From assembly GCA_001780985.1 (NCBI GenBank), contig MFJV01000001.1, forward strand, positions 913,609 to 977,608: 64,000 nucleotides of DNA. The letters are read 5' to 3'. Under the pieces are notes generated by a model. That model saw nothing but the letters and a program-made list of their open reading frames with translations. It had not been told where the DNA came from and ran no database searches. A program made the translations under genes and the position numbers. Origin of the DNA: Candidatus Gottesmanbacteria bacterium RIFCSPLOWO2_01_FULL_43_11b. GTDB lineage: Bacteria > Patescibacteriota > Microgenomatia > UBA10105 > UBA927. Positions 4,767-64,000 of this stretch are shown piece by piece (position 1 is the first letter of the stretch; the number at the start of each line of letters is the position of its first letter).

Positions 4767-5632
4767 TGGATCTTTCTATAGTTATCGTAAGTTTCAATAC
4801 GAAAAAACTTCTTGACGACTGTCTTTCTTCTGTGGAACGGAGTCTCAAAGATACGAATGTTTCGTATGAAGTGATTGTGGTCGATAATGTTTCTATTGAC
4901 GGAACTCGGGAAATGCTCAAAAAGAAATATCCACAGGTTCAAACCGTATTGAATTCGGAAAATGTCGGATTCGGCAGAGCAAATAATCAAGGTACGAGAA
5001 AGGCAAAAGGGGAGTATGTTTTTTATTTAAATTCGGATACCATCGTTTTGAATAAAGCGATAGCTAAACTTCTCTCTTTTGCCCGTCAGCACCCGAAACA
5101 TTTCGTGGGTCCAAAACTCCTCAATCTTGATCGAAGCCCGCAATCATCCTGCGGTCCGTTTTTTTCTCTCCCTGTTGTCTTTGCAGCACTTTTTTTAAGA
5201 GGAGATCGTATAGGACTCACCCGCTGGTCTCCAACTCGAACGCGGAAAGTTAGTTGGGTATCGGGGGCGGCTTTGATGGGACCGAGAAAACAACTCCTCG
5301 ATAACCTCCTCTTTGATGAAAAAATATTCATGTATATGGAAGAAATAGACCTCCTGTATAGGGCAAGAAAAAGAGGCTTTCGAACACTCTTTTACCCTAA
5401 GAGTGTGATTATACATTTGGGAAGTGGTAGTTCTACCAACAAAAAGAAAGGCCCCGTCCTCAATATTTATCGGGGTCTCATCTACTTTTATAAAAAGCAT
5501 CATCCATCATGGAAGGTTCGCATACTTCTATTTTTGCTCAAGGCTAAAGCTGCCATTGCGTGGTCTATCGGGGTAGTCAGCGGCAATTCATATCTCAAGG
5601 AAACATATGCAGAAGCTTTTTGGATCGCTTAA
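4766..5632 (+). CDS. glycosyltransferase family 2
   Basis: MDLSIVIVSFN...VVDNVSIDGT (DxD-type GT-A N-terminus); paralogue of the GT2 at 10994. Confidence 0.8.
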   Translation: MDLSIVIVSFNTKKLLDDCLSSVERSLKDTNVSYEVIVVDNVSIDGTREMLKKKYPQVQTVLNSENVGFGRANNQGTRKAKGEYVFYLNSDTIVLNKAIAKLLSFARQHPKHFVGPKLLNLDRSPQSSCGPFFSLPVVFAALFLRGDRIGLTRWSPTRTRKVSWVSGAALMGPRKQLLDNLLFDEKIFMYMEEIDLLYRARKRGFRTLFYPKSVIIHLGSGSSTNKKKGPVLNIYRGLIYFYKKHHPSWKVRILLFLLKAKAAIAWSIGVVSGNSYLKETYAEAFWIA

Positions 5633-20930: not shown

Positions 20931-20999
20931 TTTTTATCACTTCGCAGATGGAATTGCTTTGCACAATGGTCTCCAAAGACTTCGACCTCTAATCCCGAC

Positions 21000-21050
21000 G
21001 TGGCGTACCTGCCTGCCGGCAGGCAGGTCTGTTCCACATCGGATGTGGAA
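21000..21050. repeat. composite palindromic repeat: GTGGCGTACCTG + 20-nt palindrome CCTGCCTGCCGGCAGGCAGG + TTCCACATCGGATGTGGAA
   Basis: The outer parts match 25607-25637 contiguously; the inner 20-nt palindrome matches 50899-50918. Confidence 0.8.
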
Positions 21051-21123
21051 ATAGCTTTGCACATCGGGTATTTTACCTCAGTAAAACTTGACAACTTTAA
21101 GTACCAAGAGTACTATCGTCGCC

Positions 21124-21540
21124 ATGAAACGAGAAATTGATCCATTGCATCATACATTTTTCAAATCCCGTTTATCTTCTTACAAATCTCCACTTCCTCG
21201 ACAAAATCTCTTATTTAATGTAAGAAGTTATCATTCGGGAGAAATGAGGATTTCCCCAGAAAAAAGTAGTACTAATAAAGTGCTTATTGTACGGATGGAA
21301 GAAGTTGAATATTTAGAATCAAAATTTCAAATCTCACCTTATATAATTACTGATCCGTATCTACAAGTAAGATTAGAAACATCTCCTAATGAGTTACTAG
21401 TAGGGCAAAAACCCAGACCATCTGGGTATTTTGAGGATACTGAAGAACATAGAAAGTTGCTTGCTGATGGAAATTTTCAGGAAGAGCAACCTCGACTTAT
21501 TCTACTTTTTCACACAAGTCTTCGTCAAACACTTGAATAG
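21124..21540 (+). CDS. hypothetical protein, paralogue A1 (MKREIDP...FFKS family)
   Basis: Protein-level paralogue of the 21937 gene, with conserved frame and synonymous third-position changes; shared upstream element gtaNtatNNgNcgccATGaaacgaga. Confidence 0.55.
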   Translation: MKREIDPLHHTFFKSRLSSYKSPLPRQNLLFNVRSYHSGEMRISPEKSSTNKVLIVRMEEVEYLESKFQISPYIITDPYLQVRLETSPNELLVGQKPRPSGYFEDTEEHRKLLADGNFQEEQPRLILLFHTSLRQTLE

Positions 21541-21936: not shown

Positions 21937-22320
21937 ATGAAACGAGAGTTTGATCCAACACAACAGACCTTTTTTAAATCTCCTCGGCCCCATACCGGAC
22001 TTCTTTCTCGCGTTCGTTCATATCACCCCGGAGTGTATAACATGGAAGGTCATCCACCATTAAAGATTCTTGTTCTCGGCGCAGCAGAAGTAAAGTATCT
22101 CAAAGAAAAGGTCGGAACAATCCCAGTAACTGAGATCACTGATCCAAACACGCAAGTATGGTTTAAGAACCGTCGGGACGAGGGGACTACGACACTTTCT
22201 GAGAAACCGATTGGATTCGTTCAGGACACAGAAGGTGCGAGAATGGATTTAAAAAAAGGCAAGTTTAAGGAAAAAAAACCGGAACTTTCTTTGGTTCCTG
22301 ACAAAAACTTCAATTACTAA
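21937..22320 (+). CDS. hypothetical protein, paralogue A2 (MKREFDP...FFKS family)
   Basis: Paralogue of the 21124 gene (MKREFDPTQQTFFKS...SYHPG...KILVLGAAEVKYLKEKV). Confidence 0.55.
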   Translation: MKREFDPTQQTFFKSPRPHTGLLSRVRSYHPGVYNMEGHPPLKILVLGAAEVKYLKEKVGTIPVTEITDPNTQVWFKNRRDEGTTTLSEKPIGFVQDTEGARMDLKKGKFKEKKPELSLVPDKNFNY

Positions 22321-25600: not shown

Positions 25601-25637
25601 CCCGATGTGGCATACCTGTTCCACATCGGATGTGGAA
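25601..25637. repeat. repeat copy CCCGATGTGGCATACCTG-TTCCACATCGGATGTGGAA, without the inner palindrome
   Basis: Near-identical to the 21000 copy minus the 20-nt insert; contains two mutually exclusive 9-bp stems. Confidence 0.8.
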
Positions 25638-26037: not shown

Positions 26038-27195
26038 ATGCTCAGAAGCCTCAAGGGGCTATATCACCTTCTCGTTGCTGTACTTGCCAATATTTGGTTC
26101 GGTTTCCCCAGCCGCAGGCTTACCGTCATAGGTATAACAGGTACGGATGGCAAAACTACGACAACCACACTTATCTACGAAATTCTCAAAGCAGCAGGAT
26201 ACAAAGCCTCAATGATCACATCAGTTCATGCAGTGATTGCCGGAAAAAAGTATGATACAGGCTTCCATGTGACTACTCCGAATGCCTTTTGGGTTCAAAA
26301 ATACCTCCGGGAGGCAGTAAATGGTGGAGATACGCACATGGTTCTTGAAGTAACCTCACACGGACTGTCTCAATTCAGGGTCTTTGGAGTCAAATTTGCC
26401 GTTGGAGTCATTACAAACGTGACCCACGAGCACCTGGATTGGCACGGGACATTTGAACAGTACCTAAAAACTAAACTCTCTCTTCTTAAACGTGCAAAAA
26501 TTGCTGTCATTAATCGGGACGAACTCTCTTATCGCCCAAGGAATAAATACATAACATACGGCATTGTTCGTGAGGCGAGCGTAACGCCCAAAACATATCC
26601 TTTCAAAACAAAACTACTCGGTGATTTCAACCGATACAACATTCTTGCTGCCCTTGCCGCAACGTGTGAAGCATTAAGGGTAGATAAGGAGGTCGCGCTT
26701 AGAAGTATGCGAACCTTCCATGGTGTACCTGGGAGGATGGAGGTTGTGGCAACAAAACCATTTCGAGTAATTGTTGACTTTGCCCATACCCCCCATGCCA
26801 TTGACGTAGCACTCAAAGCGACAAAAAAGTTTACAAAAGGGAGAATAATCCATGTTTTTGGGTCAGCCGGTGCAAGAGACAGAACGAAACGCCCGATTAT
26901 GGGAGAAATGTCGGGAAAATATGCAAAAGTCATAGTTTTGACTGAAGAAGATTACCGGAAAGAGAACGTAAATGACATAATGGATGAAATTACAAAAGGA
27001 ATTTCACCAAATATTGACGTACATCGCTATCCAAACCGTCAGGACGCTATAAATTTTGCCATTTCAATCGCAAAACCAGGAGATACAGTGATAGTCACCG
27101 GCAAAGCGCATGAAAAAAGCCTTTGCCGCGGGACAAAAGAATACCCGTGGAGTGAACATGAGGCAATAAAAAAGGCGCTTAAAAAATATACATAA
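26038..27195 (+). CDS. murE: UDP-MurNAc-L-Ala-D-Glu:diamino acid ligase, lacking the usual N-terminal domain
   Basis: GITGTDGKTTT P-loop, DFAHTP motif and GSAGARDRTKRP C-terminal motif; only 385 aa. Confidence 0.75.
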   Translation: MLRSLKGLYHLLVAVLANIWFGFPSRRLTVIGITGTDGKTTTTTLIYEILKAAGYKASMITSVHAVIAGKKYDTGFHVTTPNAFWVQKYLREAVNGGDTHMVLEVTSHGLSQFRVFGVKFAVGVITNVTHEHLDWHGTFEQYLKTKLSLLKRAKIAVINRDELSYRPRNKYITYGIVREASVTPKTYPFKTKLLGDFNRYNILAALAATCEALRVDKEVALRSMRTFHGVPGRMEVVATKPFRVIVDFAHTPHAIDVALKATKKFTKGRIIHVFGSAGARDRTKRPIMGEMSGKYAKVIVLTEEDYRKENVNDIMDEITKGISPNIDVHRYPNRQDAINFAISIAKPGDTVIVTGKAHEKSLCRGTKEYPWSEHEAIKKALKKYT

Positions 27196-45319: not shown

Positions 45320-45339
45320 TAGAAGTATGCGAACCTTCT

Positions 45340-50659: not shown

Positions 50660-50941
50660 ATGGCTCATATTAAAGCAGGCGGAACCACTCGAGCAAATAA
50701 AGATTCAGCCTCCAAGAGACTTGGAGTTAAAATTTATGGTGGACAACGCGCAATTGCTGGAAATATCATTGTTCGTCAAAAGGGAACAAAAGTATACCCG
50801 GGAGACGGGGTGAGTATTGGGAGAGATTTTACAATTTTTGCATTGACTTCTGGTTTAGTTGAATTTTTTACCAAAAGAGGGAAACAATACGTTTCGGTCC
50901 TGCCTGCCGGCAGGCAGGTCCTGCCCGCCAAGAGCCAATAA
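50660..50941 (+). CDS. rpmA: 50S ribosomal protein L27 with a 7-aa in-frame C-terminal insertion encoded by a palindromic repeat
   Basis: [17 protein letters not shown]-terminus; the C-terminus [16 protein letters not shown] contains the 21-nt repeat at 50896-50921. Confidence 0.85.
50899..50918. repeat. 20-nt perfect palindrome CCTGCCTGCCGGCAGGCAGG (copy 2, inside the rpmA 3' end)
   Basis: Identical to 21008-21027; flanked by CCTG direct repeats (tCCTG ... tCCTG). Confidence 0.8.
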
Positions 50942-52315: not shown

Positions 52316-52360
52316 AATTTTCCTACGTTTAGTCTAAGTGATATAATAACCCTCGTCAAG

Positions 52361-52381
52361 GACGACTAGCTCAGCTGGTTT
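52361..52381 (+). other. tRNA 5'-fragment-like sequence (acceptor plus D-arm only)
   Basis: GGACGACTAGCTCAGCTGGTT matches the 5' acceptor/D-arm of a tRNA but no anticodon or T arm follows. Confidence 0.25.
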
Positions 52382-52426
52382 ACCCGATCAAGTTTTTTTG
52401 CAAAGCAAAAAATTTGTGCGGGTGAA

Positions 52427-52439
52427 GAGCGTTTCATTG
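52427..52439 (+). repeat. 13-nt direct repeat GAGCGTTTCATTG (left copy)
   Basis: Repeated at 52764-52776; together they bracket the GIY-YIG gene and tRNA-Val. Confidence 0.6.
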
Positions 52440-52705
52440 TGTATTACGTGTATATTTTAAAAAGTTTGACTGACAAGAAATTGTATTCCGGATATACTGA
52501 TAATTTGAAAAGGCGTTTTCGAGAGCATAATAATGGAGAAGTGGAGAGTACGAGGAATAGAAAACCTTTTACGTTGGTATATTACGAAGCGTATCAGCAT
52601 CAACAAGATGCTACCGCAAGAGAAAAGTTCTTTAAAACACAGTGGGGAAGGAATTATTTGAAAAAGGTTTTAAAAAATTATTGGGCGCGCATAGCTCAGG
52701 GGTAG
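52439..52705 (+). CDS. GIY-YIG family nuclease (small stand-alone)
   Basis: YVYILKS...KLYSGYTDNLKRRFREHN is the classic GIY-YIG motif; GTG start; its 3' end overlaps tRNA-Val by 21 nt. Confidence 0.75.
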   Translation: MYYVYILKSLTDKKLYSGYTDNLKRRFREHNNGEVESTRNRKPFTLVYYEAYQHQQDATAREKFFKTQWGRNYLKKVLKNYWARIAQG

Positions 52706-52756
52706 AGCGCTTCGTTGACATCGAAGAGGTCTATGGTTCAAATCCATATGCGCGCA
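52685..52756 (+). tRNA. tRNA-Val (anticodon GAC)
   Basis: Hand-folded cloverleaf: acceptor GCGCGCA/TGCGCGC, D-arm GCTC-AGGGGTA-GAGC, anticodon stem CTTCG/CGAAG with loop TTGACAT, T-arm TATGG-TTCAAAT-CCATA, discriminator A; no encoded CCA. Confidence 0.8.
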
Positions 52757-52763
52757 CAAGGAT

Positions 52764-52776
52764 GAGCGTTTCATTG
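52764..52776 (+). repeat. 13-nt direct repeat GAGCGTTTCATTG (right copy)
   Basis: Identical to 52427-52439; a related TGCGCGGGTTGA motif downstream mirrors TGCGGGTGAA upstream of the left copy. Confidence 0.6.
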
Positions 52777-52832
52777 ACCCGAACAAATTTTCTCAAGAAA
52801 ACTTGCGCGGGTTGACATTGAAAAGGGTCCAC

Positions 52833-56649: not shown

Positions 56650-56682
56650 CATTAGAAGTATGCGAACCTTCTCTGTCTTTCT

Positions 56683-63134: not shown

Positions 63135-64000
63135 GAGTTGCTCTAATCCGGGGTAAATTTCTCAACGCCTACGAAATGCAGTTATTCGAAAAATTGCCCC
63201 GCAAATATAAAATTACTGCTTTTGCCTCACTCACTCCGTTCCACGGGAAGTTTTCGTTTCCCGTAATAAAACTTCCTTCCCCTATGGACCTACCGGATTT
63301 TTCATACAAAATGCCGATTTTAAATAGATTATTCATCGATGCGCATTATCTTTTTGGATTAGAAGAGAAACTTAGAGGTTTCGATCTTGTGCACAGTGCG
63401 GAAAACTACTATCACTACACCCAACAAGCGCTCAATGCAAAAAAACATGGATACGTTAAGAAAGTTGTCGCTACGGTATTGGAAAATATTCCGTTTAACA
63501 ATGAAGGCATTTGGGGAAGACGCGCGTTTAAAAAACGGGCACGGCAAGAACTCGATCACATAATTTCGTTAACACAAAAAACGAAAGACGCCCTTATTTT
63601 GGAAGGATGCGAACCTTCTAAAATTACTGTCATCGGCCATGCGATTGATACGGATAGATTCACGCCCGTGCCTATTCGGAAAACAAAACGTCTTGTGATT
63701 CTTTTTGTCGGTAGATTGGAAGAGGAAAAAGGAGTACTGGACATTGTTGAGGCAGCAAAACTACTGCATAACGACAATCTAAAATTTATTATGATCGGCA
63801 CGGGCAGTAAAAAAAATCTGCTTCCAAAATTTATTACACAGAAAGTTGTGTCGTACAAAAATATGCCACGGGAGTATCAGGCGGCTGATATTTTTGTCGC
63901 ACCAAGTAAACCGATAAAAACATGGGATGAGCAGTATAACACTGCACTTTTAGAAGCCCAAGCATCCGGACTTCCAATCGTAACAACTAAAACCGGAGGA
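63131..64000 (+). CDS. glycosyltransferase family 4 (3'-truncated by the window end)
   Basis: ATG 63131 in ATGA overlap; hand translation gives an open frame to the window end, which is why it is absent from the ORF track; C-terminal ...LEAQASGLPIVTT motif. Confidence 0.7.
   Translation, partial: MRVALIRGKFLNAYEMQLFEKLPRKYKITAFASLTPFHGKFSFPVIKLPSPMDLPDFSYKMPILNRLFIDAHYLFGLEEKLRGFDLVHSAENYYHYTQQALNAKKHGYVKKVVATVLENIPFNNEGIWGRRAFKKRARQELDHIISLTQKTKDALILEGCEPSKITVIGHAIDTDRFTPVPIRKTKRLVILFVGRLEEEKGVLDIVEAAKLLHNDNLKFIMIGTGSKKNLLPKFITQKVVSYKNMPREYQAADIFVAPSKPIKTWDEQYNTALLEAQASGLPIVTTKTGG

Follow-up and report, generated by a model that had tools for sequence, protein, structure and literature searches.

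A very small GC-rich palindrome, gained and lost as an exact 20-bp block in many bacterial phyla, is a possible mobile unit

We analysed a 64,000-nucleotide stretch of contig MFJV01000001.1 (positions 913,609 to 977,608; Candidatus Gottesmanbacteria bacterium RIFCSPLOWO2_01_FULL_43_11b), referred to here as the window. It contains two copies of a perfect 20-nt palindrome, CCTGCCTGCCGGCAGGCAGG, which we call PAL; one is intergenic and the other lies in frame within rpmA, the gene for ribosomal protein L27 (Table 1). No other copy occurs in the window when up to three mismatches are allowed, and 100 shuffles yielded none. PAL has a G+C content of 80%, against about 42% for the window, contains no stop codon in any frame when read from the sequence, and as single-stranded DNA is predicted to form an 8-bp stem with a 4-nt loop (-8 kcal/mol). 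The two window copies have 22 nt in common, CCTGCCTGCCGGCAGGCAGGTC, and at the intergenic site the palindrome itself extends to 22 nt (21007-21028). A previous reading of the window made from its letters alone (the sequence-only reading) had singled out three related loci, all of which we confirm: locus A (21000-21050), locus B (25601-25637) and rpmA. It interpreted them as a tiny palindromic insertion element with a 17-nt core and a 4-nt CCTG target duplication. That interpretation is borne out in part, the actual unit being 20 nt, and the phenomenon is wider than one window.

Table 1. Positions of PAL, its insertion sites and the GIY-YIG nuclease cassette in the window.
Feature	Position	Strand	Description
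Host repeat, filled copy (locus A)	20994..21050	+	CCCGACGTGGCGTAC[20 nt]CTGTTCCACATCGGATGTGGAA; PAL within loop of parent hairpin
PAL copy 1	21008..21027	no strand	Perfect 20-nt palindrome CCTGCCTGCCGGCAGGCAGG, intergenic; on strain contigs L128-L131
Host repeat, empty paralogue (locus B)	25601..25637	+	5 nt past ftsI-like gene; 9-bp stem, 10-nt loop
rpmA, ribosomal protein L27, 93 aa	50660..50941	+	PF01016; insertion near C-terminus
9-nt direct repeat, copy 1	50896..50904	+	GGTCCTGCC; native V-L-P codons, conserved in relatives
PAL copy 2	50899..50918	no strand	Translated L-P-A-G-R-Q inside rpmA
21 nt absent from empty allele	50905..50925	+	TGCCGGCAGGCAGGTCCTGCC, one of several equivalent registers
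9-nt direct repeat, copy 2	50917..50925	+	GGTCCTGCC
parB	starts 50943		Directly after rpmA
tRNA 5' fragment	52360..52439	+	D-loop broken by 47-nt imperfect hairpin (core 52382-52423); ends in direct repeat GAGCGTTTCATTG (52427-52439)
Small GIY-YIG nuclease gene, 88 aa, catalytic domain only	52439..52705	+	PF01541, E = 1.7e-16; not adjacent to PAL
Intact tRNA-Val(GAC)	52685..52757	+	Closes cassette; nuclease gene's stop codon inside
Second GAGCGTTTCATTG and second hairpin	52764..52812	+	13-nt repeat (52764-52776), then ACCCGnnCAA...TTGnGCGGGT hairpin (52777-52812)

Locus B provides an empty counterpart to the intergenic copy. It reads CCCGATGTGGCATACCTG/TTCCACATCGGATGTGGAA, and locus A is the same repeat with 20 nt added in the 10-nt loop of the parent hairpin, the placement being ambiguous over the 3 nt CTG. 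The two loci were aligned by eye; a MAFFT alignment put the gap in the wrong place. For the copy in rpmA, the empty counterpart comes from a second strain. The closest L27 in a collection of 5.8 billion sequences (P0001, contig L121) is identical at all aligned residues, is 85 aa long and ends VSVLPAKS. Its DNA, from the same aquifer study, reads GTCCTGCCTGCC/AAGAG where the window reads GTCCTGCCTGCC[GGCAGGCAGGTCCTGCCCGCC]AAGAG, so that the window gene has seven additional codons (21 nt). Thirteen contigs from several independent assemblies carry the filled rpmA allele, and four contigs the locus A copy, which means that the two window copies are not assembly artefacts. PAL is present in none of about 70 related L27 genes from metagenomes, and because neither these genes nor the strain with the identical L27 have the 21 nt, the rpmA insertion is recent and lineage-specific. 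The sequence-only reading thus gave the length correctly, and the PAGRQVL segment that it described is missing from the relatives rather than universal among orthologous L27 proteins.

The CCTG on either side of the rpmA palindrome has another origin than the one proposed. These flanks are the native GTC CTG CC(C/T) GCC codons (V-L-P-A), which resemble a PAL arm; C-terminal V-L-P(-A) codons of the form GTC (C/T)TG CC(C/T) (GCN) are found in nearly all of the relatives. Being conserved across the clade as L27 codons, they are not a target duplication. The rpmA copy is best described as PAL inserted recently together with a single T, immediately 5' of the CCTGCC in the native Leu-Pro-Ala codons (CCTGCCYGCC); this accounts for all 21 nt gained. 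The same site was struck in a second lineage: another L27 (P0013, 73% identical) contains a slightly decayed 21-nt insertion there, GGTCCTGCC[TGCtGGCAGGCAGGaCCTGCC]CCAA, and its own relatives are empty, reading GTCCTGCCCCAA. One could suppose that the rpmA palindrome arose locally, by a fold-back that copied the native CCTGCCTGCC inverted and then direct, its match to PAL being coincidental. The empty allele (GTCCTGCCTGCC/AAG) does have a complete left arm, all 21 nt of the insertion are derivable from the adjacent 11 nt save for one T/C difference, and there are related L27 genes with other LP(A)xxxLP(A) duplications and no intact PAL. Such an origin is nevertheless improbable: the second-lineage relatives lack the full arm, yet the insertion in that lineage contains TGCTGGCAGGCAGG; the product matches locus A over 22 nt and more than 150 copies elsewhere over 20 nt; and locus A is not derivable from its 5-nt overlap.

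Two further observations concern the surroundings of this site. Several 91-aa L27 variants (L311, L312 and L313) have diverged 18-nt LP(A)xxxLP(A) duplications at the PAL insertion site, reading LPAQTGLPA, LPAETDLPQ and LPKESNLPM, which from their sequence may be decayed older events of the same kind. PAL also precedes a parB-like gene at short distance in the window (by 25 nt), in L001 (position 2538; by 72 nt) and in viral contigs L146 and L158, which may be coincidence.

PAL is multicopy far beyond the window. A scan for the exact 20-mer through one genome per species (596 Gb) turned up at least 120 stretches that contain it, no two from the same genome record, against about 0.5 expected by chance on our own estimate. 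It is also present in 35 viral contig stretches, where the highest count is six copies, on a 29-kb contig. The flanks are unrelated among the genome copies and among the viral copies. The hosts include many classes of Patescibacteria as well as Bacteroidota, Omnitrophota (including a single-cell genome), Planctomycetota, Verrucomicrobiota, Elusimicrobia, Thermodesulfovibrionales, Thermodesulfobacteriota, Bdellovibrionales, Ignavibacteria and Chloroflexi, so that the identical sequence is found in at least ten phyla, in addition to records titled complete chromosomes. Cultured Bacteroidota isolates carry it too (Winogradskyella echinorum, Flagellimonas yonaguniensis, Longitalea luteola, a Flavivirga sp., Aquiflexum lacus, Agriterribacter humi and Aestuariivivens sediminis). 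Searches of curated collections of 72,556 plasmids and 50,697 cultured-phage records gave no exact PAL, only chance partial matches in high-GC taxa. Additional copies with one or two mismatches lie near exact ones in the same 8-kb blocks, and in two unrelated genomes (L018 and L042) one PAL is nested in the loop of another. Neither the PAL sequence nor the peptides LPAGRQ, PACRQAG and CLPAGR occurred in the literature searched, and keyword searches gave no description.

PAL is heritable, differs in presence between near-identical strains and mutates after insertion. These properties bear on whether it could be a technical artefact, that is, a synthetic or chimeric sequence from library preparation or assembly. 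The identity of a 20-mer across phyla is suspicious, the matches are mostly in metagenome-assembled genomes and short contigs break at PAL. We give an artefact hardly any credence, as the same insertion recurs at the same site in independent samples and assemblies, PAL is found in cultured isolates, complete-chromosome records and a single-cell genome, orthologous copies bear point mutations, and net lengths are multiples of three only in genes, with a strict frame bias that is described below.

Other short palindromes were seen alongside PAL. The GC-rich micro-palindrome TCCGCCAGCTGGCGGA has eight exact copies in 0.85 Mb, in unrelated genomes, against about 2e-4 expected (our own estimate), and occurs in 55 viral contigs with weaker enrichment; a second GC-rich micro-palindrome, (T)CCCGATAGCTATCGGG(A), has three copies that co-occur with PAL (loci of the two: L011, L015, L016, L032, L040, L108, L110; L052, L062, L070). 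Their co-occurrence with PAL suggests a class of such elements. In L112 (1893-2300), a 44-nt tandem repeat array with the palindrome GGGACAGGTCGCGACCTGTCCC in each unit adjoins a PAL copy.

PAL encodes nothing, and it is gained or lost as an exact block. This is most clearly seen in other genomes, where paralogous repeats and duplicated parts of tRNA genes provide pairs of filled and empty sites. In about a dozen such pairs, exactly 20 bp is gained with no target duplication and no deletion, at sites without CCTG (L164, L022, L078, L106, L109, L091/L046, L149, L153 with two copies, L161 and L108); the left and right flanks are, for instance, GGTA and GAGC in L164, TTTT and AATT in L109, CGGA and TTAG in L078, and TTAA and CTGT in L149. 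In the L030 and L086 pairs, the base preceding PAL is replaced by A. Flank statistics were gathered over one set of 125 copies and another of 165 distinct copies. Flank repeats in the first set and junction microhomology in the second are at background level; there is no consistent flank duplication and no CCTG after the palindrome in either. The only bias among the 125 copies is a slight one towards A at position -1 and T at +1. Apparent 7-nt flank repeats number four, two of them inside 7-nt tandem repeats. The inserted palindrome is therefore real relative to its empty sites, as the sequence-only reading had it, and the target duplication is not. A longer parent transposon with PAL arms as its terminal repeats was also considered and rejected, as no pairs of separated half-sites were found.

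The main rival to a mobile unit is an enzyme-free copying error, in which the growing strand switches template by pairing over a few bases with a PAL elsewhere, or with the opposite strand, copies the palindrome, stalls at the hairpin and returns, so that PAL would spread because it is a strong hairpin and not by protein recognition. The window copies lend themselves to this explanation: the filled rpmA allele has the form X / inverted X / X (TCCTGCCTGCC, GGCAGGCAGG, TCCTGCCCGCC), its empty allele already holds a full PAL arm, the locus A target and PAL have ACCTG in common, the rpmA site was struck twice, and the net length varies (+18, +20 and +21). The wider survey argues the other way. The dozen or so exact 20-bp insertions are at sites without similarity to PAL, the microhomology at junctions is no higher than background, and copying errors should give many different palindromes, whereas in a census of the 0.9 Mb around PAL copies one dominates, with 129 occurrences against 8, 8 and 3 for the next three. 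We therefore regard template switching as an unlikely source of PAL as a whole.

Although the majority of copies are intergenic, PAL is also found in frame within protein genes, in rpmA as the sequence-only reading described and in rpsF and others. Only copies with a net length that is a multiple of three survive there: +21 in rpmA and +18 in the rpsF (S6) gene of a Daviesbacterium, where PAL adds six residues in one of 50 S6 homologues. All nine clear coding copies, which include those in FtsK-, GatB-, dTDP-glucose dehydratase-, S6- and ScpB-like proteins, read LPAGRQ, the only frame without cysteine. Frame-preserving lengths and a bias to LPAGRQ are what selection on real insertions would yield, and therefore argue against an artefact. 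The coding copies also bear on the idea that PAL is a host-selected functional site (an operator, a terminator or an RNA-stabilising hairpin) whose identity is kept by function. Such a role would suit the mostly intergenic location, the position of loci A and B at gene boundaries, and the presence of PAL 16-46 nt before the start codons of the GIY-YIG genes described below, where, as a 5' hairpin, it might have a regulatory or stabilising effect on the mRNA. It is very improbable given that conserved proteins, dead tRNA fragments and other repeats all harbour copies, that presence and absence differ between near-identical strains, and that the same 20-mer is found in at least ten phyla and in phages with no common neighbouring gene. 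Moreover, a T-run rarely follows PAL, which is thus not a typical intrinsic terminator.

A subset of copies lies in loops or at loop-stem junctions, namely in the D-arm, anticodon and variable regions of tRNAs, in REP-like hairpins (REP, repetitive extragenic palindromic) and in other PAL copies. An intron was rejected as the explanation for the tRNA cases, as the interrupted tRNAs are nearly all 5' fragments or pseudogenes beside an intact copy. One viral contig (L157, position 2284) contains an otherwise intact-looking tRNA-Met with PAL in the variable loop, which would make it a long-variable-arm tRNA. The related L134 has the same tRNA-Met insertion together with a 13-nt deletion in the T-arm.

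Neighbouring genes were surveyed in 8-kb blocks around PAL copies. Apart from a small GIY-YIG nuclease family, which open reading frame clustering missed and only a profile detected, no shared family emerged from all-against-all clustering of the open reading frames of 120 loci or of those within 200 nt of PAL. The profile was built on 80-90-aa proteins consisting of the catalytic domain only (PF01541) and run over all fetched DNA. It gave 12 matches, every one in PAL-selected loci or in the window; the L27-syntenic loci (476 kb) and the other viral loci (526 kb) yielded none. Outside the window there are seven full-length genes, and in six of these cases PAL lies 20-40 nt upstream of the domain; a further case is truncated where its locus ends. 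Adjacency of PAL to small GIY-YIG genes in duplicated tRNA genes is far above chance, and the two are strongly associated.

The genes recur across phyla in cassettes of constant order: a tRNA 5' fragment interrupted by a hairpin, which is often PAL, then the GIY-YIG reading frame, then an intact copy of the same tRNA (L037, L039, L077, L106, L118, L164, L305 and the window). One PAL and GIY-YIG unit sits within an hsdS-like gene. In a search from the protein side, six viral cassettes had upstream DNA that was examined; one has an exact PAL at the corresponding position and another a different hairpin. A nuclease gene placed in a conserved host gene with a duplicated target is, as far as the sequences indicate, the layout expected of a homing endonuclease. 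The cassette of the window (52360-52812) likewise looks selfish, being bounded by the 13-nt direct repeat and two hairpin copies; its 47-nt hairpin interrupts the tRNA at GGT/GAGC, the position held by PAL in homologous cassettes. The homologous cassette in L039 has the same design. A search of the window for known RNA families found only the tRNA-Val. PAL in the tRNA fragment may shield a cassette against the nuclease that it encodes, or against being deleted across its repeats.

The small GIY-YIG family is a candidate for the mobilising enzyme, because PAL sits 20-40 nt upstream of its genes far more often than chance would allow; the connection is one of association. UvrC- and Slx1-type GIY-YIG nucleases cut branched DNA and leave ligatable ends, which makes the family a reasonable candidate. 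We put at about even, roughly 0.5, the probability that PAL is a very small GC-rich palindromic mobile unit of 20 bp that moves via its hairpin, with this nuclease as the candidate enzyme. In such a scheme PAL would move in hairpin form. A structure-specific nuclease would cut the extruded or single-stranded hairpin at its base, and the self-paired 20-mer, its 5' and 3' ends abutting, would be joined into a nick or break elsewhere. A hairpin sealed into a nick would constitute a three-way junction, replication of which would add 20 bp without duplication; precise loss would also be possible. The boldest form of this proposal is that a bare 20-nt hairpin is cut by a structure-specific GIY-YIG nuclease and rejoined into nicks by host ligase, with no need of a transposase or of a target duplication, which would be a previously unrecognised kind of mobile DNA; we consider this doubtful. 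If it were so, PAL would be the smallest mobile element known, and a nuclease-resistant hairpin could cross phyla via phages or environmental DNA.

Several points weigh against movement of PAL as a hairpin by this nuclease. The cutting and joining steps are inferred. A GIY-YIG gene is lacking in the vicinity of about 95% of PAL copies, and PAL shows no link to any other protein family; in the window itself 1.5 kb separates the GIY-YIG gene from the rpmA copy, and the cassette of that gene has a different hairpin. The association may also be indirect, if PAL is tolerated only in dead tRNA fragments or is selected there. Both window copies, unlike most, are at sites sharing 5-11 nt with a PAL arm, and these sites fit a homology-primed copying error as well as they fit enzymatic insertion. 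With PAL removed, its flanks (n=143) show no greater tendency to fold than controls (843 sites; p = 0.5), and therefore do not support a general preference for hairpin loops. Finally, identity across phyla is unexplained unless the mobilising agent is sequence-specific and horizontally transferred.

PAL resembles several known kinds of repeat. The sequence-only reading had likened it to REPs and their mosaics (BIMEs, bacterial interspersed mosaic elements) and to Correia-style elements. PAL is a short palindromic multicopy repeat without target duplication, as are REP/BIME repeats with their RAYT (REP-associated tyrosine transposase; Y1, HUH) and the peel-and-paste IS200/IS605 elements; like REP and IS200/IS605-type elements it is precisely gained and lost, with a hairpin in single-stranded DNA as the likely active form, and it is often nested in other hairpin repeats, as REP-like sequences are. 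REPs are imperfect palindromes of 20-40 nt with a GTAG or CGTC tag (PMC3733652). No such tag was found at the end of PAL among 125 copies, and no Y1 transposase was found near any PAL copy in the 8-kb blocks. REPs are moreover lineage-specific and extragenic, whereas PAL is identical across at least ten phyla and also intragenic, in rpmA-, rpsF-, ftsK- and gatB-like genes. For IS200/IS605 elements the insertion point is the 3' side of a fixed tetra- or pentanucleotide. PAL, too, inserts without duplication; no conserved flanking tetranucleotide was seen on either side of it. Miniature inverted-repeat transposable elements (MITEs) such as Correia/NEMIS are likewise non-autonomous, have inverted ends, are presumably mobilised in trans and can affect neighbouring genes. 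They are, however, 100-300 bp long, rely on DDE transposases for movement and leave a target duplication of fixed length (TA in Correia), whereas PAL consists of two arms only and its dozen or so filled and empty pairs have no duplication. Membership in the REP/BIME or Correia-style families, as first suggested, is thus not upheld: PAL has neither tag nor TA duplication, and is confined neither to intergenic DNA nor to one lineage.

Two other comparisons concern elements within genes. Rickettsia palindromic elements are reportedly palindromic selfish DNA found in frame in conserved protein genes. PAL likewise is found in frame in conserved proteins without destroying them and has no encoded function known so far; at 20 bp and in many phyla, against 100-150 bp and Rickettsia only, it is analogous to these elements and not a member. 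The GC clusters of yeast mitochondria are short, GC-rich, palindromic and optional, can spread among alleles, and include one in the var1 ribosomal protein gene. PAL is similarly a GC-rich palindrome in an AT-richer genome, in frame within a ribosomal protein gene; the clusters differ in being organellar, about 30-60 bp, imperfect and family-specific, reportedly with short flanking repeats. PAL thus does not appear to be a REP, an IS200/IS605 element, a Rickettsia palindromic element or a yeast GC cluster, and is set apart because it is untagged, has no fixed flanking tetranucleotide and no duplication, comprises 20 bp without a spacer and is identical across phyla. For the nuclease, the nearest parallel is SegB of phage T4, the product of a free-standing GIY-YIG homing endonuclease gene in a phage tRNA gene cluster (PMC13096335). 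The PAL-linked genes are likewise in tRNA genes and flanked by a duplicated target. Their proteins are only 80-90 aa, with a catalytic domain and no DNA-binding domain, unlike free-standing homing endonucleases, and their cassettes differ from the SegB type in that the tRNA 5' part is duplicated with the hairpin in the duplicated copy. No link between GIY-YIG homing genes and a 20-bp palindrome was found in the literature searched.

If PAL is truly mobile, it would set a new lower size bound for mobile elements, 20 bp with no spacer between the arms, and an identical selfish sequence would be circulating among Patescibacteria, Bacteroidota, Omnitrophota, Planctomycetota and their phages. PAL supplies essential proteins such as L27, S6, FtsK and GatB with small natural in-frame insertions (LPAGRQ). 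The GIY-YIG link provides a testable function for a very common, uncharacterised catalytic-domain-only family in tRNA genes, and the presence of PAL in several cultured Flavobacteriia and Chitinophagia makes bench testing possible. PAL can also break metagenome assemblies. Among strain contigs corresponding to window positions 21000-21130, L131 begins exactly at PAL, L132 just past it and L129 a few bases upstream; the palindrome or the filled/empty polymorphism appears to be what breaks them.

Two features of the window lie outside this account. Locus A is about 100 nt upstream of a small gene (21124-21540, MKREIDP...) that has a paralogue at 21937-22320 (MKREFDP...), the two being about 73% identical in nucleotides around their starts. 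A non-palindromic 17-mer, GAAGTATGCGAACCTTC, occurs five times, at 5512-5528 (minus strand), 26702-26718, 45322-45338, 56655-56671 and 63602-63618, once with one mismatch; one frame reads RSMRTF in its four exact copies, and one copy lies within a murE-like gene.

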